Source: Candidatus Dojkabacteria bacterium (GTDB taxonomy: Bacteria; Patescibacteriota; Dojkabacteria; B142; JAFGFJ01). From it: a DNA stretch of 64,000 nucleotides. Under the pieces are notes generated by a model that saw only the letters and a program-made list of their open reading frames with translations, ran no database searches and was not told the origin of the DNA. A program made the translations under genes and the position numbers. The stretch lies in assembly GCA_016931155.1 (NCBI GenBank), contig JAFGFJ010000006.1:385419-449418 (forward strand). Reading direction: 5' to 3'. Positions 6,736 through 42,683 of the stretch are shown here, piece by piece (within the stretch, counting starts at the first letter, position 1; each line of letters begins with the position of its first letter).

Positions 6736-7386
6736 ATGAACAAATCTTTTACAAAACTAACAATCACTCTTCTGCTTATTATTATTTCTCTGGTTTTGCT
6801 TTTGGGGCTTGGAGGAAGTGTAGCAGCGGGTATATGGTTGCATACTTATAAAGTATTTACAAAAGAGGAATTGGTTGCGGAAATAATTGTCGGGGAACAG
6901 ATGAAGGATGAAAATGGTAATGAGTACTTTGAATTCGAATACAAACAGGTAAAGGAAAAGTCAGTACTGGAAGATATTTTTTCGAAAGACGAGGAAATAG
7001 AGCAAACCAGATTTGAAAAGGCAGAGGAATATATGGCTTATGGTGATCAAATAAAAGTGGGAGGTGAAGTTGTAAAATTTCATAATTGGTTGATTTTTCT
7101 CGGTTTTGAAACTATTTATAAAATATCAAGAATTGAAGGTGACTACGATAGTGTTGAGAAGGCTCGAAATGCACCGGAGAGATCAGTTTTTGAACTAAAT
7201 GGCGGTACCGATTCGTATTGGAAGGGATTGGAAAAAAATAAAGGAAAGTATAATTTTGCTGTTGATACTGTCTACGGTAGTTTCGCCTCAAAGTTTGTCC
7301 AGGATGAAGAGAGAATTTATGGACTTTATATTACAAAAGACGGTTTTTTGTTGGACGAACTGGATGAATTGAATTATACTAATTAG
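6736..7386 (+). CDS. hypothetical protein with an N-terminal membrane anchor
   Basis: 216 aa ORF with a hydrophobic N-terminal helix and no recognised domain. Confidence 0.5.
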   Translation: MNKSFTKLTITLLLIIISLVLLLGLGGSVAAGIWLHTYKVFTKEELVAEIIVGEQMKDENGNEYFEFEYKQVKEKSVLEDIFSKDEEIEQTRFEKAEEYMAYGDQIKVGGEVVKFHNWLIFLGFETIYKISRIEGDYDSVEKARNAPERSVFELNGGTDSYWKGLEKNKGKYNFAVDTVYGSFASKFVQDEERIYGLYITKDGFLLDELDELNYTN

Positions 7387-8958: not shown

Positions 8959-9014
8959 TTTCTTTACATTTGTCCGCTATTCCAATAATCTGTATCTAGT
9001 TAGATTATATTTTT

Positions 9015-9593
9015 GTGAAATCCGGAAAACTTTTTTCGACAATTGGAGAACTGGGATTGCTGGTGCTTCTGTTTCTAATAGTGTCGGCTTCGTTTATTTC
9101 TGTTGTGGGTCTTTCTCCTCTTACTTTTGAGGAGGTTGCAGGTGAAAAGAATATGGTTGGAGAGGTGGCGGGCGAGTATAATGATAGGGTTATTGAAGAA
9201 AACAGGATAAATATACTTCCGGCTTTTGCCCGTGAAGGTTTATTTTTTGGAAATCAGAGTATTGGGGAAAATTATTATTCTACTTCAGTTCAGTATGAGA
9301 AGATTCTGACGGGTGAAAATAAGGCAGAAATCTTGAAGCTTGTGAATCAAGCGGAACCTTCAAGTTTTGAGGTCAGAATAAGTGTGCCAAAAGATAATCT
9401 CAAAAATCTAAGTATTAGAATGCTTGCCAATGGAGAAAGTATTCGTCTTACGGATGGGCTGTTTCAAGGAAAAATTTTTCCTTACAGGTTTAAGGTTGAA
9501 AAAGGGGAACAGATTGACTTGATTTTAATACTGGATTCAAATATTCAGGTAAATTACCCTGTAATAGTTACTTTTGAATTGGAGAAGATTTAA
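9015..9593 (+). CDS. hypothetical membrane-anchored protein
   Basis: 192 aa ORF with an N-terminal TM helix. The GTG start is uncertain. Confidence 0.4.
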   Translation: MKSGKLFSTIGELGLLVLLFLIVSASFISVVGLSPLTFEEVAGEKNMVGEVAGEYNDRVIEENRINILPAFAREGLFFGNQSIGENYYSTSVQYEKILTGENKAEILKLVNQAEPSSFEVRISVPKDNLKNLSIRMLANGESIRLTDGLFQGKIFPYRFKVEKGEQIDLILILDSNIQVNYPVIVTFELEKI

Positions 9594-11476
9594 TCTTTCT
9601 TCAATGCTGCAAGAAAGGCTTCTTTTGGTATTTCAACATTCCCAAACATTTTCAGTCTCTTCTTTCCTTTTTTTTGTTTTTCTCTGAGTTTCATTTTTCT
9701 AGTAATATCACCTCCGTATAGTTTGGCAGTTACGTCTTTTTTATATGCCTGAATTGTTTCTCGTGCTATTACTCTTCCACTGATTGAGGCCTGAATAGGT
9801 ACTTTAAACTGGTGTCTGGGAATGATTGTTCTAAGCTTAGAGACCATTTCCTTACCTCTTCTTTCTGAATTAGTTTTGTGAGTCAGGAAAGATAGTGCTT
9901 CAACTTGTTCGTAATTTACAAGTATTGTTACTCTTGTTACGTCAGAACAGCGGTACTCAAGAAAATTATAATCCATTGATGCATAACCCTGAGTTACTGA
10001 TTTTAGTTTGTCAAAAAAATTTACAATAACTTCAGCTGTTGGTAGATTGGCTGTTATCATTACATGTTTTGAGCCTTTAATTGCGGTTTCAGTTAGATAG
10101 TTCATTGATACATATTCGCCTCTGTTTGATTGTATCAGTTCCATAATTTGTCCTATATATTGTTCAGGTGTAATAATTTCAGATTTTATCCATGGCTCTT
10201 TGATTTCCTTTATGTAAGTAGTATCAGGGAATTCATTTGCTGTTCGTACTCTTAAGATATCTCCTTCTACGTTTGCCAGATTTATTCCAGCTATTTTAGA
10301 CGGGTTATTAGTTGAGAGAGTAATAAGATATTCAACAGAAGGCGATGTTGCAATAAGATTAACATCAAATTCTCTCTCCAGTCTTTCCTGTGTTATTTCC
10401 ATGTGCAGAAGTCCTAAAAAGCCAACAACAAAACCTGATCCAAGAACTATTGATGTCTCTTTTTCGTATGTTAATGCGGCATCATTCAATGAGAGTTTCT
10501 CAAGGGCTTCCTGAAATTCCTTAAAATCATCAGCTTCAACCGGGAAAAGGCTCACAAATACCATAGGTTTTGGCTGTTTATAGCCAGGAAGTGCTTTAAT
10601 TGAGTTGTTGTTCTCGAATTCACTTTTCAGTACTACTGTATCCCCAACGTGAACCATTTTTATATCTTTTAGTCCGGTAGCAATATAGCCCACTTCTCCT
10701 GCCACAAGGCGTTGATTTTTCTCAAGACTGGGTTTTAGATAACCAATTTCAAGAGGCTCTATAGTTGTTTTTGTTCCCATAACATAGACTCTATCATTTG
10801 TTTTAAGTTCTCCGCTTATTACTCTTACTAAGGCAATAACACCTTTGTGTTCATGATAAAAAGAATCGTAGATGAGCATTTTTGTTTCATTTTCTTCTTT
10901 TTGTGCTCTAGTTTGAGGGGAAGGTACCCTTTCTATAATCGTATCTAAAATATTTTCAATTCCTATGCCCGTTTTCCCAGAAGCTCTCAGAATCTCTTCT
11001 CTTTTAAATCCAAAGGTTGAAATAATTTCTTCTTCAGTTTTTTCTATCTGGGCACTTGGAAGATCAACTTTGTTAATGACTGGAATTATTTCAAGATTGT
11101 TTTCAAGAGCTTTGTACATATTCGTAAGGGTTTGTGCTTGTATTCCCTGGGTTGCATCAACAAGAAGAAGAGCACCCTCGGAGGCCGCAAGTGATCTGGA
11201 AACTTCGTAGGAAAAGTCAACGTGTCCGGGAGTATCTATCAGGTTTAAGATGTAGTCTTCATTTTTGTGGTTATAATTCATTCGAACAGTTTGAAGTTTT
11301 ATTGTTATTCCTCTTTCCTGTTCAAGCTCAAGTGTGTCAAGCATCCTTTCTTTTATGTCTCTTTGTCTTACTGCGCCGGTTACCTCCATCAGTCTGTCTG
11401 CAAGTGTTGACTTGCCATGATCAATATGTGCAATTATTGAGAAGTTTCTTATTTTATTTATCTCTGTTTTGTCCAT
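9590..11476 (-). CDS. lepA: translation elongation factor 4 (LepA)
   Basis: GTPase motifs AHIDHGKST and DTPGHVDF, with a LepA-specific C-terminus. 628 aa. Confidence 0.92.
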   Translation of the reverse strand: MDKTEINKIRNFSIIAHIDHGKSTLADRLMEVTGAVRQRDIKERMLDTLELEQERGITIKLQTVRMNYNHKNEDYILNLIDTPGHVDFSYEVSRSLAASEGALLLVDATQGIQAQTLTNMYKALENNLEIIPVINKVDLPSAQIEKTEEEIISTFGFKREEILRASGKTGIGIENILDTIIERVPSPQTRAQKEENETKMLIYDSFYHEHKGVIALVRVISGELKTNDRVYVMGTKTTIEPLEIGYLKPSLEKNQRLVAGEVGYIATGLKDIKMVHVGDTVVLKSEFENNNSIKALPGYKQPKPMVFVSLFPVEADDFKEFQEALEKLSLNDAALTYEKETSIVLGSGFVVGFLGLLHMEITQERLEREFDVNLIATSPSVEYLITLSTNNPSKIAGINLANVEGDILRVRTANEFPDTTYIKEIKEPWIKSEIITPEQYIGQIMELIQSNRGEYVSMNYLTETAIKGSKHVMITANLPTAEVIVNFFDKLKSVTQGYASMDYNFLEYRCSDVTRVTILVNYEQVEALSFLTHKTNSERRGKEMVSKLRTIIPRHQFKVPIQASISGRVIARETIQAYKKDVTAKLYGGDITRKMKLREKQKKGKKRLKMFGNVEIPKEAFLAALKKD

Positions 11477-33964: not shown

Positions 33965-35287
33965 TTAGTTTTTCTCAACTTTGTGAGCTTGTGTTTCGTG
34001 TGCATTGAAAAACTCTATTGCCCTGGCAAGCTCGGGGTAATTTTTGGAGTATTCTTCAATTGAAATATCTTGCTTCCATGCAGTACATGCCTGAACAACG
34101 GCTGCTGCTCCTGCTTTTGTTCCATCCGGGTGGCTATGCACTCCTGCTCCCATTGTGATAATGAAATCAGTATGGCCTATAGCCTCAATAAACGGACGGA
34201 GTAGAACGGGATTCATACCCCCTGAAATAATCGGATTTGTTTTTTTTAGATCTCCCCAATCCTGTTCAAAAAAGTGCCCCTTTGTGATTTTTCCAAGAGC
34301 CGAATTGGCTGAGGTCACATCTTCACCTTGTGAACCGGACATTTTTCCGATCCCCGAGGTGCCTGTGTGAATACCTGATGCGCCAGCAAGGCGGGCTAAT
34401 TTTGTAAGCACCAGAACTGAAAAGCCAATGGGGTTTTCTTCACGAGTGAATGCTCCATGTCCTGCTCTATGGAAGTGAAGATAGACATCCGGATAACGTC
34501 TTCTGATTGTTTGAACGGCTGTCCAGCCTGCAGTAATACCGTCTACGAGAAAAGCGTAACTATCCGGTTTCATAATCTTTTGTACATAGTCCGCCCGTTC
34601 AATCATTGTGTCAAAATCTGCGGCAGAAACATTGAAGGAATGAACCTTTGTTTGTCCGGTTTCAGTTTCTGCCTTATCCATGGCTTCCTTTACAAGGTCA
34701 ACTGTTTCAGTGAATGGTGCAAAATCCTGATCTGCCTGAGGTTCATCGTTTTTGACAAAGTCTCCACCGCCAGCCCAGAAGTTGTAGCAGACGTCTGCAT
34801 ATTCGGCGGATTTAAGGCCGATTTTGGGCTTGACGATAGTGCCCAAAATCGGCCTATCATAAGCGTTCAAATACTTCCTCATCTCATCGATCGTATAACT
34901 CGATCCGTCATAGTTTTCTAACATGTCAGGCGGGAACGAAATATCAAGAAGTTTTAGTCCTGCAAGTGAGCTCATTCCAAAGACGTTCCCGGCCAGGAAT
35001 GTAACAATATTTTGGACATTACCTGCGCGATCAAACATCCTCCATGGATATGCTATATATACAAGCCCTTTATCTTCTTCCACTTTATAGACAACTCCTC
35101 CCATTGAATCAGAAAATTCTGTCGCAGTATTTACCTCAATATTTGAGCCGTTTGAAGATTCTGCTGCAATTTCTGAGGCCGCATCAAGAAGGTCTGTTTT
35201 TCCATAGGGTATTACTTTGAAAACTGCAAGCAGGTGGGTTCCTTTTAGTACTTCTTCATTCCCGAGTTGTATGTATTTTTTCTGCAT
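33965..35287 (-). CDS. rbcL: ribulose-1,5-bisphosphate carboxylase large subunit, form III-like
   Basis: GGDFVKNDEPQ active-site motif, KPKIGLK (with the lysine that is carbamylated) and the GGMNP C-terminal loop. At 440 aa with no small-subunit gene nearby it is archaeal/CPR form III-like. Confidence 0.85.
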   Translation of the reverse strand: MQKKYIQLGNEEVLKGTHLLAVFKVIPYGKTDLLDAASEIAAESSNGSNIEVNTATEFSDSMGGVVYKVEEDKGLVYIAYPWRMFDRAGNVQNIVTFLAGNVFGMSSLAGLKLLDISFPPDMLENYDGSSYTIDEMRKYLNAYDRPILGTIVKPKIGLKSAEYADVCYNFWAGGGDFVKNDEPQADQDFAPFTETVDLVKEAMDKAETETGQTKVHSFNVSAADFDTMIERADYVQKIMKPDSYAFLVDGITAGWTAVQTIRRRYPDVYLHFHRAGHGAFTREENPIGFSVLVLTKLARLAGASGIHTGTSGIGKMSGSQGEDVTSANSALGKITKGHFFEQDWGDLKKTNPIISGGMNPVLLRPFIEAIGHTDFIITMGAGVHSHPDGTKAGAAAVVQACTAWKQDISIEEYSKNYPELARAIEFFNAHETQAHKVEKN

Positions 35288-36286: not shown

Positions 36287-36545
36287 CTTAAATTTGAGTA
36301 CAGTATAGGGAATTTTAATAGAAAGGTAAAAGGTACGATATCTATCAGATCAAATACGACAAACTGCTGTCTCATTTGGAATCTTCATATTAATCCCTAA
36401 ATGAGACCTTTCATTATTGTAAAAGTTCACATGGAAATGATGCGTAAAATTCAATTGCGGTTCTCGTCTGTTTCGGTATCATCTTAGAATTGGAAAAGAC
36501 TACAAACGGTGGTGTGTCCGTCAGTGCGAGGAAGTCAATACGGTG

Positions 36546-36911
36546 TTAGGCGAAGAAGCTCATCGACAAGATTATTGTTCCAATGCCAGAAATAATATTT
36601 AGGTAGATCAGTATGTTTGAACATATGGAACTAAAATGTTCTTTTCGTCTTACAATTACTTTATGAACAATAAATGGAATTATTCCTCCAATTCCCATTA
36701 TTATCCCGATAATCGCTCCAATCAATGTAGTTTTTTCAATTTCCAGTAATCCAATTAGGATTACAAGAATTATCGGAATATGAATCAACAAAAAACCAGT
36801 AATCTTTCCGGGAAGTTTTAGTAATTCCCATTCTCTTTCATAAGCTGATTCAATTTCATGTAAGAGTAGTAATGTTGCATTTATTATATAGAAGATAGTA
36901 ATTAATTTCAT
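36546..36911 (-). CDS. small integral membrane protein (121 aa)
   Basis: Four hydrophobic helices. Confidence 0.45.
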   Translation of the reverse strand: MKLITIFYIINATLLLLHEIESAYEREWELLKLPGKITGFLLIHIPIILVILIGLLEIEKTTLIGAIIGIIMGIGGIIPFIVHKVIVRRKEHFSSICSNILIYLNIISGIGTIILSMSFFA

Positions 36912-37065
36912 ATTTCAATCAACTCCAAATTGAACCGTCCGCTTTTTCGCCTACCGTTTCTTAATAGCTGAAGTTCTGACGGCGGAATTGGCTCGTTCTT
37001 TTTATTAAATCACAAACACTTTTTAAAATACAAGATATCGATTATCACCGTTCGAGTCGGGATTT

Positions 37066-37105
37066 GGACGGAAGAATTTCACATTCCTTTAAAAAATATT
37101 TGAGT
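37066..37105. repeat. intergenic repeat family copy A (…GGACGGAAG…ACATTCCTTTAAAAAATATTTGAGT)
   Basis: The 25-mer ACATTCCTTTAAAAAATATTTGAGT is identical at 37081-37105 and 39568-39592, and degenerate at 40524-40568. Each copy lies ~165-175 bp upstream of a minus-strand start codon. Confidence 0.7.
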
Positions 37106-37153
37106 GAAATTCTGGAGTCGGCTATTAAGTGTTAGACGATGTAAAAAGAAAAT

Positions 37154-37609
37154 TTACCTCTGAAGCTCGTTATAAAAGTTCTCTAATTCTTCAACCCTTT
37201 TGTTAGTAATCCTTTCGATACAACTCCACTCTATAAGTGGTTGCATACTACCTTCTTCGTATTGTTTGCTTTCAAGTTTACATGTTTGATCGCGATATTG
37301 CTTCCAAGAATCTTGGGATGAGATAATCAGATTGTCATTATTAACTTTCTTTAGGTCTGTTAAGATTTTTTCTAATCTTGTAATTTCTTCTTCTGCTTTG
37401 TTTTTAGCACAAATATTCATTTCAGATTGGGACTTTTGTTCTTTGCAATCGATTGCATTATTATCAGTGTCTACTTTATTGAGTAAGTGTATAGGTCGTT
37501 GTTGTGTATCTTTAGCTTTGTTTTCACTATCGTTTTTATTTTTATCTTTAGTGCACCCAAACAATAAAACAGATGCCAACAGAAGAATGATTAGAAAAAA
37601 TCTTTTCAT
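37154..37609 (-). CDS. DUF1311/LprI-like lipoprotein
   Basis: Lipoprotein signal ending ...LLFGC, and a C-terminal W-x-x-Y-R-D-x-x-C motif typical of DUF1311. Confidence 0.5.
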   Translation of the reverse strand: MKRFFLIILLLASVLLFGCTKDKNKNDSENKAKDTQQRPIHLLNKVDTDNNAIDCKEQKSQSEMNICAKNKAEEEITRLEKILTDLKKVNNDNLIISSQDSWKQYRDQTCKLESKQYEEGSMQPLIEWSCIERITNKRVEELENFYNELQR

Positions 37610-37777
37610 GGTATTTCGTATTAATGTTTTCTTTTTATTTCGCCTATGTTCAAGAGTATGCGAAGTTATTTCTGTAGCGATAGCGGAACAAAAAACTTGG
37701 GTGAAGGAATTTTTTACTCCTTATTAATATTACAAACGAAAAATTACTGAACTGCATACTCTTTGTTATGTGATGTG

Positions 37778-38359
37778 CTAATTTTGCGACCTGTAATACT
37801 CCTTCGCTTTTTTAGTAACAGACAAAATGAAGCCGCTTTTTTCTTCCGTATATTTGACTCTATCATTTGCATGTTTATCTGAAAGTTTTCTCTTCAGATT
37901 ATCATACTGTTTAGCGACGTCAGGAAATTGCCGAAGATATTCTCTAAAATAGAGCCTGTCCCATAATTCAGAATCTGCCTCAACCATATGAATATGATGT
38001 GTACGTTTACCTTCTGAATTGCGCTTGATAAACCAGGCGTAGTAGGGCGGATCATCGTCACCAAATACAGGACGCCAAAAGTACTCATATCCTTCGGCTT
38101 CTAAAATAGGCACAATTTGCTTTTTAGTTTCTTCAAGACTTGAAACTTCCACTAAAATATCAATGATAGGTTTAGCAGAAAGTCCTGGAACCGCCGTACT
38201 ACCAAAATGCTCAATTCTTTTAACGATATTCTGAGGCAATTTCTTGAGTAAAAAAGCGGCTTCATCTTCAAACATTTTAGGCCACACTAAATCATAAGGA
38301 ATGATTGATATTTCCTCTTTCACTAACTCTTGTATTCGTTTTTTCATTTTATCTTCCAT
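37778..38359 (-). CDS. GrpB/UPF0157-family protein
   Basis: HIGSTAVPGL-AKPIIDI motif. Confidence 0.6.
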   Translation of the reverse strand: MEDKMKKRIQELVKEEISIIPYDLVWPKMFEDEAAFLLKKLPQNIVKRIEHFGSTAVPGLSAKPIIDILVEVSSLEETKKQIVPILEAEGYEYFWRPVFGDDDPPYYAWFIKRNSEGKRTHHIHMVEADSELWDRLYFREYLRQFPDVAKQYDNLKRKLSDKHANDRVKYTEEKSGFILSVTKKAKEYYRSQN

Positions 38360-38369
38360 AAAAGTAAAA

Positions 38370-38798
38370 TTATTCCTTGATTTTATTAATTATTGATAAA
38401 AAAAATTCTTTATCTTTATGGTGTGTGAGCAACTCAGCTACTTCGTTTTTACTAACCCATCTGGCTTCGGGATTTTCCGGGTCTATCGGACTAAGTAAGG
38501 ATTGGTTCGTCTTGAATAGAAACATAAAGATTGTTTTTTGCTCAGAAGTGTCATCGCCGCCATCAAGGGCAATCTTGGGCCTCTGATAATTGCCCAAATC
38601 TGCCAATAGTTCGAGCTGATTAATACCGGATTCTTCGTATATTTCTCTTTTTGCGGCATCAAGTGTGCTCTCTCCTTCATCAATATGACCTTTGGGCAAC
38701 GACCAAGATTGCCCTTTTTGATTTACCACAAGAACCAATTCGGCTTTATTGATCACCACACCACCTGCTGATTTAGTTTGTTTAATGTTGTTTTCCAT
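38370..38798 (-). CDS. NUDIX hydrolase
   Basis: Nudix box GHIDEGESTLDAAKREIYEESGI. Confidence 0.8.
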   Translation of the reverse strand: MENNIKQTKSAGGVVINKAELVLVVNQKGQSWSLPKGHIDEGESTLDAAKREIYEESGINQLELLADLGNYQRPKIALDGGDDTSEQKTIFMFLFKTNQSLLSPIDPENPEARWVSKNEVAELLTHHKDKEFFLSIINKIKE

Positions 38799-39004
38799 AT
38801 TGCAGAGTAAAGATAAAGAGTTTTTTATAATTTTGCCTGAATTTCATATAACGTCTTGCGAGTTCAAGAAGTTGACCGCAAGTTTTATCAACAAGTAACT
38901 ATTCTCAAAAATATATTTCAAGTCCTAAAATAAATCAAACATGATTATAAATATCGCGGTCAATTTGGGTGAAGCGAGTACTCGAGCGAAACCTTGAACT
39001 CGCT

Positions 39005-39029
39005 GTTGTGCGATGTAATCCAAAATCCA
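39005..39029. repeat. second repeat family, inverted copy (GTTGTGCGATGTAATCCAAAATCCA)
   Basis: This is the reverse complement, with 3 mismatches, of TGGATTTTGGATTATGTCGTACAAC at 39415-39439. The 14 bp core TAATCCAAAATCCA is exact. Confidence 0.65.
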
Positions 39030-39034
39030 TATAT

Positions 39035-39397
39035 TCAATTTTCAATTCTTTTTTTAGTAAATCCTATAAATATATAGAGAACACCTATTAAAAATGGAAT
39101 AACCATATGCAATGTTAAATCTCTCTCAACTATAAAACCTATAATGAATCCAATTAAAATAGGTATTGATGTTAAAAAACCACCAATCTTTTCGAATTTC
39201 CAACCTAACCCCAAACCAATAAACATCAGTAGAAAAACCGTTAACCAAACATTATCCCAAATAGAATATTCTGATTTAATGAACGGTAATGGATTTCCAT
39301 ATCCAAAATAAAAGGGAAGTCCAAAGATAATTACTGCAGTTGCTAAAATCCTTGTTACCCATTTTATTATTTTGTAGTCTCTTTTTTTTAATTTCAT
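39035..39397 (-). CDS. small integral membrane protein (120 aa)
   Basis: Three to four TM helices. The gene is flanked by a 14 bp perfect (about 26 bp imperfect) inverted repeat. Confidence 0.45.
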   Translation of the reverse strand: MKLKKRDYKIIKWVTRILATAVIIFGLPFYFGYGNPLPFIKSEYSIWDNVWLTVFLLMFIGLGLGWKFEKIGGFLTSIPILIGFIIGFIVERDLTLHMVIPFLIGVLYIFIGFTKKRIEN

Positions 39398-39414
39398 TAG
39401 GTATCCTCTATGCT

Positions 39415-39441
39415 GGATTTTGGATTATGTCGTACAACGTT
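39415..39441. repeat. second repeat family, direct copy (TGGATTTTGGATTATGTCGTACAACGTT)
   Basis: It shares an exact 16-mer TATGTCGTACAACGTT with 40388-40403 and forms an inverted repeat with 39005-39029. Confidence 0.65.
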
Positions 39442-39550
39442 TCGGCATATCTGATGTTTTCGCCGAATTTGTTAATCAATACTTGAATATTAGCAGGTTC
39501 TTCTTTATTTCGAAAGACCATTGATTGACCGCCGAGCAGAGGCGAAAATA

Positions 39551-39592
39551 TGGGCGGAACAAAAAGGACATTCCTTTAAAAAATATTTGAGT
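39551..39592. repeat. intergenic repeat family copy B
   Basis: GGGCGGAACAAAAAGG followed by ACATTCCTTTAAAAAATATTTGAGT, identical to copy A. A related GCGGAACAAAAAA fragment is at ~37673. Confidence 0.7.
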
Positions 39593-39640
39593 CCTTTTTG
39601 TGTAGCCAGATATGCGTTGTTATACGCTGTAAATCAAATT

Positions 39641-40375
39641 TTACCCCTCTTTTATGCACTTAATAATTAAGAAAGGAGGAAATTCTTGTTTATATTTCTT
39701 CATCTTAGGATCAGTGATTACTTTTCCATCTCTATGTTTCGTGTATATTTCATGAAACCCAGAAAGTAAAAAACCTGCTGAAAATAAATTTGCTAAATAA
39801 AATCCGATTGAACGATGATAATGTGGATTGATATCATTAAACGTTATCACGCTTTCCGTCCTATAGCTTTTCATTTTATTGTAAATTTGCTCTTCAGCCT
39901 CTTCCCGAATTACATCATCTGTAATAGGATTTAAGATCGAAAAAATCAAATTTCCGCCTTTTTTAATAACACGACTACATTCATTGATTGTATCTTTAAT
40001 CGTTCTTATATCATGAAATGCCATATTTGAGACAATAAAATGAAATTTGCGGTCTTTAATATGTTCAAGAGCAGATGAATCTCGAATGAAATATTTAATA
40101 CCTAAAGGTTTTTTACTTTCGTGATCTTGGGCAATTTTAATTAGTTTATCAGCAATATCTATACCAGTTACTATAGCTCCTTGCTGAGCCAACCACCTTG
40201 AAAAATATCCCTGTCCACAAGCAAGATCCAAAATTTCCTTCTTTCTTATATTGCCGAGTAATTCTTTTATAATCGGATTAAGATATGTCTTATGGTATAA
40301 ATCACCAGTTTCTCCGACGCTTCGATTGTATTCATCGGCAATATTATTCCATGTTTTTTTATCATTAGATTTCAT
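39641..40375 (-). CDS. class I SAM-dependent methyltransferase
   Basis: Motif I ILDLACGQGYFS with post-I acidic residues. Confidence 0.7.
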   Translation of the reverse strand: MKSNDKKTWNNIADEYNRSVGETGDLYHKTYLNPIIKELLGNIRKKEILDLACGQGYFSRWLAQQGAIVTGIDIADKLIKIAQDHESKKPLGIKYFIRDSSALEHIKDRKFHFIVSNMAFHDIRTIKDTINECSRVIKKGGNLIFSILNPITDDVIREEAEEQIYNKMKSYRTESVITFNDINPHYHRSIGFYLANLFSAGFLLSGFHEIYTKHRDGKVITDPKMKKYKQEFPPFLIIKCIKEG

Positions 40376-40383
40376 AATGTCTT

Positions 40384-40403
40384 CGTAAAATTTGATTTAT
40401 GTC
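40384..40403. repeat. second repeat family, partial direct copy (GATTTATGTCGTACAACGTT)
   Basis: Exact 16-mer shared with 39426-39441. It lies 9-28 nt upstream of the methyltransferase start codon. Confidence 0.6.
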
Positions 40404-40523
40404 GTACAACGTTCATTTGTATGCGAGGTTTTGTGCCGTTTCATCGCATCTTTTCAGTATATTATCACATTCGTTCAGAAATGGAAGTTGCTTTGTATTA
40501 GCACTTTCGGAGGCACAAAATCT

Positions 40524-40568
40524 GGGTGGAATGAAAAAGACATTTCCTTAAATTTTTACAAAAGAGTC
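40524..40568. repeat. intergenic repeat family copy C (degenerate)
   Basis: GGGTGGAATGAAAAAGACATTTCCTTAAATTTTTACAAAAGAGTC. Confidence 0.55.
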
Positions 40569-40633
40569 TTTTTCATGGAACCGCATACAAATTGTTATAG
40601 GATGTAAATTTTATTCGTCGTTGTATTACCACC

Positions 40634-41269
40634 TTACATTATTATCTCGTCGCCACTACCGATAAGCTGAATTTTTTCGTCCCTTATTATCATAGCTTGA
40701 TCATCGTTCAAAATACGTATAGGTAAATCCAAATCCTTCGACTTTTCCTCCAATAGTTCTTTCATCTCAGAAACATAGTGAGCTTTCATTAAAAAAGGTG
40801 TTAGCTCCATGCCTTTAAAATCTGTTATTCCACAACGATCAAAACCTCGTTTAGACCAAGTAGCCATGATAATTGAAGGACATGCGATGTATGAACCAGC
40901 ACTTGTCCCAATGTAAACAAGCCCTTTAGGTAGTAATTCTTTGACTACTTCTTCAAAACCGCTTTCTCTAACAGATTTTAAAAGATAGAAAGTATTACCT
41001 CCTTCGACATATACAACATCATAATCAGAAAGCACCTTTTTTAATTCCTCTTTGGATTTGCCGGTTATATCGTACTCCGCGTAAGAAAAATTCAGCTTAT
41101 CCATCGATTGCTTTTGCCGTTCTATGTAATCAGTACTAGGAACCTTTTTAGATGCTGTTGTTACATAAAGAATCTTCGATTTAGAAAGAGGCTTAGGCAA
41201 AAAATCATCTAACTTATTGGCGGCGATTAACTTTCCGCTTGATGTAAGTATTATCGTTTTCATCTGCAC
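40634..41269 (-). CDS. peptidase S51 (PepE-like) family protein
   Basis: GTSAGS nucleophile-elbow motif in a class-I glutamine-amidotransferase-like fold. Confidence 0.55.
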   Translation of the reverse strand: MQMKTIILTSSGKLIAANKLDDFLPKPLSKSKILYVTTASKKVPSTDYIERQKQSMDKLNFSYAEYDITGKSKEELKKVLSDYDVVYVEGGNTFYLLKSVRESGFEEVVKELLPKGLVYIGTSAGSYIACPSIIMATWSKRGFDRCGITDFKGMELTPFLMKAHYVSEMKELLEEKSKDLDLPIRILNDDQAMIIRDEKIQLIGSGDEIIM

Positions 41270-41409
41270 TAAGAATAAAATTTATTTCCTATAACTGGTT
41301 ACTATGCGAACTATTTTCGTAATTAATACACCAATCTGTATGTTTTGCGAACTAATCTGGTATAATAACCTTAATCTAATTATCAGCATAATATCAAGAT
41401 CATATTGCT

Positions 41410-42224
41410 ATGAACAGCGAATTGCATAAAACCACTCGTGAGCTTAAAATTCGTGACTACAGTCCCAAAACCATCAATAGTTATATGAATGGTCTCAAGA
41501 ATATTTTTCTTTTAGAATAGTGAACTTAAATCAACTGGATACTGATAATATCAAGGACTTCCTGCTCTACTGCAAAGATAAAAATATTTCAGCCAAAACG
41601 AGAAACCAGTATCTTAATGCAATCAAATTCTACTACTACAAGGTTATTAATGTCAGAGATAGAATAGAAATCAGATCTGCCAAACGAACTAAAAGTCTTC
41701 CTATTGTATTAAATCGATCCGAGATTAAAGAGTTAATAAATGCTACAAATAATCAAAAACACAAATTGTTGCTCTCAGTTGCATATGGAGCTGGTTTAAG
41801 GGTCAGCGAAGTTGTAAGTTTGAAAGTTAAAGATATAAATTTTCAAAACTTGACACTTCATATCAAGCAGTCAAAAGGAGATAAAGACAGAATAACTATT
41901 TTCCCCAATAGCATTATAGATAGTTTAATTGCAATCACTGGTAGTAAAAGTAGAAATGAATACGTTTTCTCAAGCGAAAAAGGTGGGAAACTGACTACAC
42001 GTACTGCACAGAAGGTATTCTCTAATGCACTAAAAAGGTCAGATATTAAAAAAGATGCCTCATTCCATACTCTCAGGCACAGCTTTGCTATACATTTACT
42101 TGAGAATGGAACGGACGTACGTTATGTACAGGAGTTACTTGGGCATCAAAATATAAGGACAACCCAGAGATATACCCACGTTACCAATCCTCAGCTTAGA
42201 AACATTAAGAGTCCTTTAGTTTAG
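41410..42224 (+). pseudogene. tyrosine recombinase/integrase (XerC/D-like) interrupted by a frameshift
   Basis: A 36-codon ORF (ATG at 41410; ...IRDYSPKTINSYMNGLKNIFLLE*) encodes the start of the N-terminal SAM-like domain. The remaining 234 codons (41520-42224; C-terminal R...HxxR...Y catalytic region ending HTLRHSFA...RYTHV) are in another frame. The frames overlap at 41481-41520 across a TTTTTCTTTT run. Confidence 0.65.
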
Positions 42225-42593: not shown

Positions 42594-42683
42594 TGGCGGA
42601 GAGGGCGGGGTTCGAACCCGCGTGGCGCTTTCGCACCGCGTCGCTTTCCAGGCGAGCCCTTTAGACCGCTCAGGCACCTCTCC
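42594..42683 (-). tRNA. tRNA-Ser (anticodon GGA), long variable arm
   Basis: Reverse complement ggagagg...ctGGAaa...gcgggttcgaaccccgc...cctctcc-g-cca. G73 is the discriminator base. The 3' end faces the integrase gene. Confidence 0.75.

Follow-up and report, generated by a model that had tools for sequence, protein, structure and literature searches.

Integrons are defined and searched for by an extra domain of their integrase (IntI), a tyrosine recombinase, and this domain is thought to be indispensable for the recognition of folded attC sites. The IntI-specific insertion defines IntI in IntegronFinder (PMC4889954) and in a study of archaeal integrons (PMC9668308), and was reported as essential for attC recombination (Messier and Roy, 2001, as cited in PMC9668308). 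The locus analysed here lies in a stretch of 64 000 nucleotides (the window) from a metagenome-assembled genome (MAG) of Candidatus Dojkabacteria, which belongs to the Candidate Phyla Radiation (CPR) or Patescibacteria (GenBank assembly GCA_016931155.1, contig JAFGFJ010000006.1, positions 385,419 to 449,418). The structured spacers between its minus-strand genes are very probably attC-like recombination sites of an integron-like gene-cassette array, a variant of the integron whose recombinase lacks the IntI insertion.

As in integrons, a tyrosine recombinase is encoded beside an attI-like junction. The cassettes are co-directional, functionally unrelated and mostly single-gene, and their content differs between relatives. 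The sites have the integron layout (R''-L''-variable region-L'-R') with conserved AAC/GTT, structure being kept over sequence, and, again as in integrons, the crossover would fall at G|TT and the bottom strand would be the one that folds. Sites within a genome resemble each other, and in one of the compared loci (designated by L numbers), L036, a duplicated cassette is found at the attI-proximal position. The promoterless state of cassettes is weakly addressed by a sigma-70 scan (not above shuffles). Unlike IntI, the recombinase has about 270 amino acids and no insertion of the kind that IntegronFinder requires (about 35-45 amino acids near patch III). The R stem extends here to a cassette-specific pairing of about 15-25 bp with an invariant mismatch at arm position 11 (and position 10 in CPR), and a conserved hairpin and a CCCA(W)ATT box are present inside the variable region. 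Canonical attC sites have a symmetric spacer of about 5 nt and extrahelical L-box bases, whereas the R-L spacing here is 1-2 nt on the 5' side and 4-6 nt on the 3' side, and the conserved unpaired feature falls instead within the extended R stem (arm positions 10-11). The hosts also differ, being CPR bacteria here, and the relatives in Flavobacterium and Spirochaetia carry the array downstream of the recombinase on the same strand. The locus is therefore not an integron in the strict sense, because the integrase insertion is lacking and details of the sites differ.

Archaeal XerA and the 'Cand' Xer subgroup (PMC8138268) resemble the recombinase in size, domain layout and similarity (130 bits for XerA, 130 bits for IntI4). 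These Xer enzymes use a single dif site for chromosome dimer resolution, whereas the gene described here accompanies arrays in which the sites are structured and the cassettes variable. The CPR enzymes were assigned to the 'Cand' subgroup as presumed Xer substitutes by Smyshlyaev et al. (2021; PMC8138268). Integrative mobile elements exploiting Xer (IMEX) of the CTX type and the pdif modules of Acinetobacter (PMC7399989) are also small gene modules bounded by inverted recombinase-site repeats. Unlike them, the units studied here have four boxes per site, covarying L stems and long arrays beside the recombinase, and no XerC/XerD pair. Both L'-spacer-R' and the attI junction resemble dif-like cores, in which two arms of 11 bp flank a centre of 6-8 bp (about 28 bp in all); the L''/L' stem and the arm pairing are additional to such a core. 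Such arrays with a short recombinase were not found described in searches of a full-text collection in which subscription journals are thinly covered.

The probable cassette array and its sites

Five attC-like sites (S1-S5) and six cassettes of unrelated function lie divergently upstream of a frameshifted tyrosine recombinase gene. Each gene is bracketed by its own inverted repeat of 22-28 nt, which ends exactly in GTT...AAC. The mobile unit opens with the TT of a GTT core, then holds one or two genes, and closes with a structured site (60-220 nt) whose end is RAAC-G. The features of the array are as follows.

40410-41294, minus strand: cassette 1, peptidase S51 gene (40634-41269) and site S5; I1 arms at 40594-40621 and 41268-41295
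40394-40610, minus strand: site S5, AAC..GTT at 40596-40408; covariance-model match of 62.3 bits, E 2e-11, outside the training set; single-stranded DNA fold z -4.95
40531-40576, minus strand: hairpin 1 of S5, whose loop is the degenerate third copy of the 25-mer
39438-40409, minus strand: cassette 2, S-adenosylmethionine (SAM) methyltransferase gene (39641-40375) and site S4; I3 arms at 39619-39644 and 40385-40410
39422-39635, minus strand: site S4, AAC..GTT at 39621-39436; covariance-model match of 55.2 bits, E 9e-10, outside the training set
39559-39601, minus strand: hairpin 1 of S4, whose loop is the exact 25-mer
38852-39437, minus strand: cassette 3, DUF7670 membrane protein gene (39035-39397) and site S3; I4 arms at 39005-39029 and 39414-39438
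38836-39021, minus strand: site S3, AAC..GTT at 39007-38850, with a short-loop hairpin 1 and the box TTCACCCAAATT; covariance-model match of 75 bits
37647-38851, minus strand: cassette 4, NUDIX (38370-38798) and GrpB (37778-38359) genes and site S2
37632-37781, minus strand: site S2, with a degenerate R' (ATAGGCG) and GCGGAACAAAAAA (37683-37695); covariance-model match of 78.1 bits
36955-37646, minus strand: cassette 5, LprI-domain lipoprotein gene (37154-37609) and site S1
36939-37147, minus strand: site S1, AAC..GGT at 37133-36953, R' GGTAGGCG; covariance-model match of 41.9 bits, E 8e-7, outside the training set
37074-37112, minus strand: hairpin 1 of S1, with the exact 25-mer as loop and a different, compensated stem
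36545-36954, minus strand: cassette 6, DUF6713 gene (36546-36911); arms GGTAGGCGAA and TTCGCCTAAC

The spacer motifs listed by the initial annotation are, in all likelihood, conserved parts of the five attC-like recombination sites that separate these six cassettes. Its 25-mer ACATTCCTTTAAAAAATATTTGAGT is present in two exact copies, at 37081-37105 and 39568-39592 (0 matches expected in shuffles), and the degenerate third copy was placed at about 40541-40565. The GGxxGGAA heads of the same module were located at 37066, 39552 and 40524. The distance from the module to the start codon of the next minus-strand gene is 170, 171 and 166 nt, in agreement with the 165-175 bp given previously. The module corresponds to the hairpin-1 loop and the CCCA box of a site. 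The second module, a 28-mer, was found exactly at 39414-39441 only. It had correctly been said to have a partial direct copy, which is an exact 17-mer at 40397-40413 and not at 40384-40403; the inverted copy at 39005-39029 was recovered as well (88% complementary). This 28-mer is made up of the R' core of S4 and the 5' arm of the next cassette, that of DUF7670, and its inverted copy is the 3' arm of that cassette. The fragment GCGGAACAAAAAA, expected near 37673, is present at 37683-37695. Two further spacers of the family (37610-37777 and 38799-39034) had been missed, together with the inverted repeats that bracket the genes, the divergent tyrosine recombinase gene and the unrelatedness of the downstream genes. 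The view of the spacers as a repeated, structured and mobile-element-related family tied to cassettes was borne out.

Sites S1-S5 share one plan, read on the gene (minus) strand. A cassette-specific arm ending in ...ACATCnYAYAAC (R'') is followed after 1-2 nt by an L'' box of 9-11 nt. Then come GGTTC, hairpin 1, TYCRCCCAWATT (the CCCA(W)ATT box) and hairpin 2. The 3' part consists of (A)ACAT, L' (the exact complement of L''), RAAC and GTTRTAYGAMAT... (R'), which opens the arm of the next gene. Base pairing in hairpin 1 is kept between S1 and S4 by compensated changes: the 21-nt loops are identical and the stems (GAATTTCAC and ACAAAAAGGAC) are wholly different.

Covariation was measured in the L stem. 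In 14 sites from four genomes, 93.9% of its positions were paired, and 9 of the 11 pairs had changed on both sides, none on one side only. The covariation score was 0.42, against 0.15 in shuffles (reached by 0 of 500) and at most 0.13 in slid controls. The values were similar in 46 sites aligned by the covariance model (91.6% paired, 10 of 11 pairs compensatory), an alignment that was itself fitted to that model. Wobble pairs are nearly absent from the L stem.

Pairing between the two arms of each cassette covers about 22-25 nt and includes a conserved mismatch, which turns into G.T on the bottom strand. In 28 of 37 cassettes, arm position 11 sets an A of the 5' arm against a C of the 3' arm, and in CPR the pairing also fails at position 10; on the bottom strand these mismatches become G.T and T.T. 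Over arm positions 13-26, own arms match at 10.8 of 14 positions and non-own pairs at 4.9 of 14. Across phyla, an arm identity of at least 10/13 was reached by 10 of 37 own pairs and by 0 of 1332 non-own pairs. Folding of single-stranded DNA gave z -3.3 for S4 and z -5.0 for S5 relative to shuffles, with a predicted R stem, L stem and three-way junction. The bottom strand was predicted to be the more stable in 24 of 25 reconstructed sites (mean -5.1 kcal/mol, p = 3e-5). When a site was rebuilt from the cassette's own arms, as in the circular form, its predicted stability exceeded that of the array form by 7-8 kcal/mol.

Specificity was assessed with a covariance model trained on 14 sites, to which the window contributed only S2 and S3. 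A regular-expression scanner for AAC-box...box'-AC-GTT was dropped in its favour because the background was high (about 19 matches per shuffled window). Within the 64 kb of the window, the model gave exactly five matches, each on the gene strand, including the untrained S1, S4 and S5 (E 8e-7 to 2e-11). In a search of Rfam, only tRNAs were found at the gathering threshold, and two chance matches with E <= 1 were obtained in the array region.

Some smaller features of the sites were also recorded. A conserved motif GAA-NN-TGCTAAT / TGATAAT (TGnTAAT, extended -10-like) is present in hairpin 2 of long sites (window 39487-39496, 40495-40504 and 37039-37049, gene strand; L005 1521-1734), about 100 nt before the next start codon, and it may be a cassette promoter. 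In several CPR lineages, the gene-strand end of long hairpin-1 loops is a recurring TTTAA(W)AAGGAR, which is Shine-Dalgarno-like (window 37090-37103 and 39577-39590, plus-strand coordinates; L005, L017, L030, L042, L088). No conserved open reading frame (ORF) was found downstream of this motif. A small ORF starting from an ATG in the hairpin-1 loop was rejected, S1 reading ATG-TGA and L005 having no ATG. Hairpin 1 was likewise rejected as a terminator, its stem being short and AT-rich and its loop 21-24 nt long. An insert of about 44 nt, richer in GC (for example CGCTAAAGCCTCGTTGCACTCTCGTTCCGTTTCACTCCACTCGGG), splits the 3' arm exactly after arm position 10, at the conserved bubble, in L005 (about 7115-7160 and about 330-380), L036 (2-3 cassettes), L009 (about 9010-9050) and L010 (about 1-100). 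It is absent from all sites of the window. By analogy with IS1111-attC elements or group IIC-attC introns, it could be a tiny site-specific insertion element.

Recombinase, attI-like junction and distribution

Two features are encoded or located on the recombinase side of the first cassette.

41410-42224, plus strand: tyrosine recombinase gene, about 271 amino acids, with a -1 frameshift in a T-run; IntI/XerA-like, without the IntI-specific insertion
41296-41409, minus strand: attI-like region, separating the first cassette from the recombinase start and ending ...TTCGCATAGTAACCA|GTTATAGG, with the junction at 41295/41296

The frameshift is located in the T-run at 41505-41520 (AATATTTTTCTTTTAGAATAG). 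The N-terminal 35 codons occupy 41410-41514 and the rest of the gene extends to 42224; one added T restores a protein of 271 amino acids. The same split (36 + 234 amino acids) was found in an independent Logan assembly. The best sequence matches in the PDB were VchIntIA (130.3 bits) and XerA (130.2 and 127.4 bits), XerD reaching only 76.5 bits. The alignment with VchIntIA is in two blocks and bypasses IntI4 residues 170-246 opposite query residues 166-199. In NCBIfam, the top match was XerA_Arch (191 bits, cutoff 220); the integron integrase model TIGR02249 matched in two stretches (187 bits, cutoff 265). The AlphaFold model of an intact homologue with 83% identity (mean predicted local distance difference test, pLDDT, 82.9) matched 2a3v best, followed by XerA, and the fold match to 2a3v requires about 35 gap columns. 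Because of these PDB, NCBIfam and fold matches, the enzyme is classified, on sequence and model comparison, as IntI/XerA-like but without the IntI-specific insertion. The family comprises >7,500 proteins of about 270 amino acids. No second tyrosine recombinase was detected in the window by tblastn.

The attI-like junction (...TTCGCATAGTAACCA|GTT) lies about 115 nt upstream of the recombinase. The region is conserved with L002, L005 and L009, and the homology ends at window 41283-41290, which is the first GTT. In most CPR loci, a similar junction, ...CGYATA...A|GTTR, precedes the recombinase start by about 110-156 nt. The contigs of L012, L027 and L029 end 4-8 nt beyond the attI|GTT junction, as would follow from a first cassette that differs among members of the sampled population.

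Duplicated units were found in three loci. In L036, a unit of 244 nt is present at the attI junction and again internally after another site; the copies are 100% identical, are bounded by |GTTAGCACG...GCGGAC|GTT and have different downstream neighbours. Two copies of a unit without ORF, composed of arms and core, were found in L005, and their flanks differ. One cassette of L088 stands behind two different sites, and the first base of R' (A or G) tracks the upstream site. These duplicated units therefore indicate an exchange between positions 1 and 2 of R' (G|TT) and a joint movement of arms and core, as for integron cassettes.

The following mechanism can be proposed. The site would fold as single-stranded DNA, most likely from the bottom (non-coding) strand, into an R stem (R''/R', about 22-25 bp in the circular cassette), an L stem (L''/L') and a three-way junction. 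The junction would carry hairpin 1, with the 25-mer as its loop, a single-stranded CCCA(W)ATT and hairpin 2. Cleavage by the neighbouring IntI/XerA-like recombinase would fall between G and TT. Recombination between two sites would excise cassettes as circles, and these would be re-inserted preferentially at the attI-like junction.

The site family recurs in related genomes, as had been supposed. All 46 model matches in 17 CPR sources are upstream of, and divergent from, a homologous recombinase. Of the 12 CPR loci whose upstream sequence reaches 1.3 kb or more, 11 contain at least one site. Relatives in which the recombinase is 83% and 78% identical have divergent arrays, whose gene contents differ. 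Site S2 (window 37648-37769) is 83.6% identical to a site of L005 (5994-5876), and the upstream genes differ (GrpB and peptidase S51). From such comparisons, site types appear to be specific to a lineage and to be used again with other genes, as in the chromosomal integrons of Vibrio. The model also matches arrays beside recombinases with 36-45% identity in Flavobacterium, Spirochaetia, Paenibacillaceae and Cytophagales. In these, the array is downstream of the recombinase on the same strand, the opposite of the CPR layout. The order in Flavobacterium difficile is recombinase, attI-like junction and about 10 co-directional cassettes with own-arm pairing. Such platforms recur in cultured Flavobacterium and Algoriphagus strains.

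Some side observations concern these loci. Many other CPR contigs stop 100-600 bp upstream of the recombinase, and assemblies seem to break where cassettes begin. In L008, the recombinase-proximal portion (TTTGGAAATATTAAAATTAGAGTAG...TTTTATACGAATA...) is present three times (9242-10000 and 6970-7223), and an ORF of 161 amino acids is located between the recombinase and the attI-like junction. The same-strand arrays of L056 (10820-19200, F. difficile), L063 (4544-10100, a Spirochaetia MAG) and L062 (11285-11906, Saccharibacillus kuerlensis) follow short homologous recombinases; their sites, 152 nt long in L056, are very homogeneous and show own-arm pairing.

Weighing of the explanations

Several points weigh against attC-like sites of an integron-like array. 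The recombinase lacks the insertion reported as essential for attC recombination, and the local gene is frameshifted. The spacing of the R and L boxes (1-2 versus 4-6 nt) departs from canonical attC. The recombinase family is very large, well conserved and presumed to be an Xer substitute (PMC8138268), a housekeeping role being possible. Site S1 as a whole folds no better than shuffles (z +0.3), though its L stem and hairpin 1 are predicted, and the preference for the bottom strand comes solely from predicted energies and mismatch types. In the main alternative, a housekeeping Xer would act on 'attI' as its dif site, and the units would be dif-exploiting elements similar to IMEX or pdif modules, integrated as double strands at dif-like cores (L'-spacer-R'). 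The enzyme indeed has the size of Xer, lacks the IntI insertion and belongs to a very large conserved CPR family, presumed to take the place of Xer (PMC8138268). Inverted half-sites of the TCGYATA type are present in the junction region. Xer-type enzymes without the IntI domain can use a folded single-stranded DNA hairpin, as is generally known from CTX phage and CTX-type IMEX. However, no switch of the GC skew was seen at 41.3 kb, the skew being positive on both far flanks, and this lack of a terminus signal argues against a dif site, although small genomes may show little skew. A double-strand mechanism accounts neither for the covariation of the L''/L' stem nor for the complementarity of own arms, a frameshift is unexpected in an essential Xer gene, and arrays of about 10 unrelated single-gene units are atypical of IMEX. 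The dif-based explanation was therefore considered unlikely.

The other explanations were given still less weight. The initial annotation had proposed either a regulatory architecture copied along with duplicated cassettes or small non-autonomous mobile repeats. Cis-regulatory or RNA elements (shared promoters or operators, terminators, mRNA-stabilizing or processing structures in an operon) would agree with the regular position 166-171 nt upstream of the next start codon, the recurrence of TGnTAAT in long sites, a TTCACC-18-TATAAT match in S3 and the AAGGAG-like motif in hairpin-1 loops. Yet predictions of sigma-70 promoters and intrinsic terminators were not above shuffles, no Rfam family matched, the L stem is almost without wobble pairs, and both the predicted stability and the conserved mismatch point to the non-transcribed strand. 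Own-arm pairing across genes and duplicated units with exact GTT boundaries would also be left unexplained, and a regulatory function of the sites as a whole was held to be very improbable. A copied promoter or operator architecture in particular does not fit genes that are unrelated and spacers in which base pairing, not sequence, is conserved. The tandem duplication of the downstream genes, envisaged as a trivial origin of the repeats, was discarded since these genes are unrelated in function. Repetitive extragenic palindromic (REP) or miniature inverted-repeat transposable elements (MITE) spreading into intergenic spacers would likewise be repeated, structured, intergenic, about 150-240 bp long and present in related genomes. 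They should be dispersed, whereas all five covariance-model matches in 64 kb are confined to one array and one strand, and the sites always lie beside one recombinase family. No target-site duplications, which it had been proposed to look for, were seen at the junctions, and the strongest inverted repeats bracket genes and not spacers, so that a REP/MITE-like identity has hardly any likelihood. Every gene is flanked, beside a tyrosine recombinase, by inverted repeats (22-28 bp, the outer 12 bp conserved), which could also suggest switches in which each gene is flipped. This possibility was rated equally low: all cassette ORFs examined (window, L005, L056) are co-directional with their sites, and inversion explains neither the L stems nor the duplicated units at attI.

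Wider significance and the borders of the array

The locus and its relatives have about an even chance of representing a widespread, unrecognized class of integron-like gene-capture systems. This class would combine Xer-sized IntI/XerA-like recombinases without the IntI insertion with attC-like sites whose extended R stem is marked by a mismatch, and would be present in CPR, probably DPANN archaea, Flavobacteriia, Spirochaetia and Paenibacillaceae. Such platforms could be a form of the integron that is either ancestral or parallel. Some attC arrays without detectable IntI, namely clusters of attC sites lacking integron integrases (CALINs) and most archaeal arrays, could be accounted for by them as well. 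Complete integron-like platforms were found here with a recombinase devoid of the extra domain, including in the ultra-small CPR bacteria. If these platforms are functional, the requirement for the IntI domain is not general and a large share of cassette platforms is missed by current tools. The transition from Xer to IntI and the origin of cassettes would become directly testable because the cassettes carry long self-complementary ends. CPR genomes, whose mechanisms of horizontal gene transfer are poorly known, would then possess a dedicated route of gene acquisition.

The two distal sites, S2 and S1, carry degenerate R' cores (ATAGGCG and GGTAGGCG). Given these cores and the frameshift of the recombinase gene, the local array may be decaying or frozen, or may rely on a recombinase supplied in trans. 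No recognizable site was found after cassette 6 by covariance-model scan and motif inspection, and the array was considered to end there. The last spacer, S0, encodes a C-terminal remnant resembling an rve-type transposase (window 36350-36440, minus strand, ...NFYNNERSHLGINMKIPNETAVCRI*), which suggests an old insertion sequence (IS) at the distal end of the array. A tRNA gene of 87 nt is located about 370 bp downstream of the recombinase (window 42597-42683, minus strand). On the other side, just past the array and a short-chain dehydrogenase/reductase (SDR) gene, a form II/III-type large-subunit gene of ribulose-1,5-bisphosphate carboxylase/oxygenase (RuBisCO) is found at 33965-35287 (minus strand).

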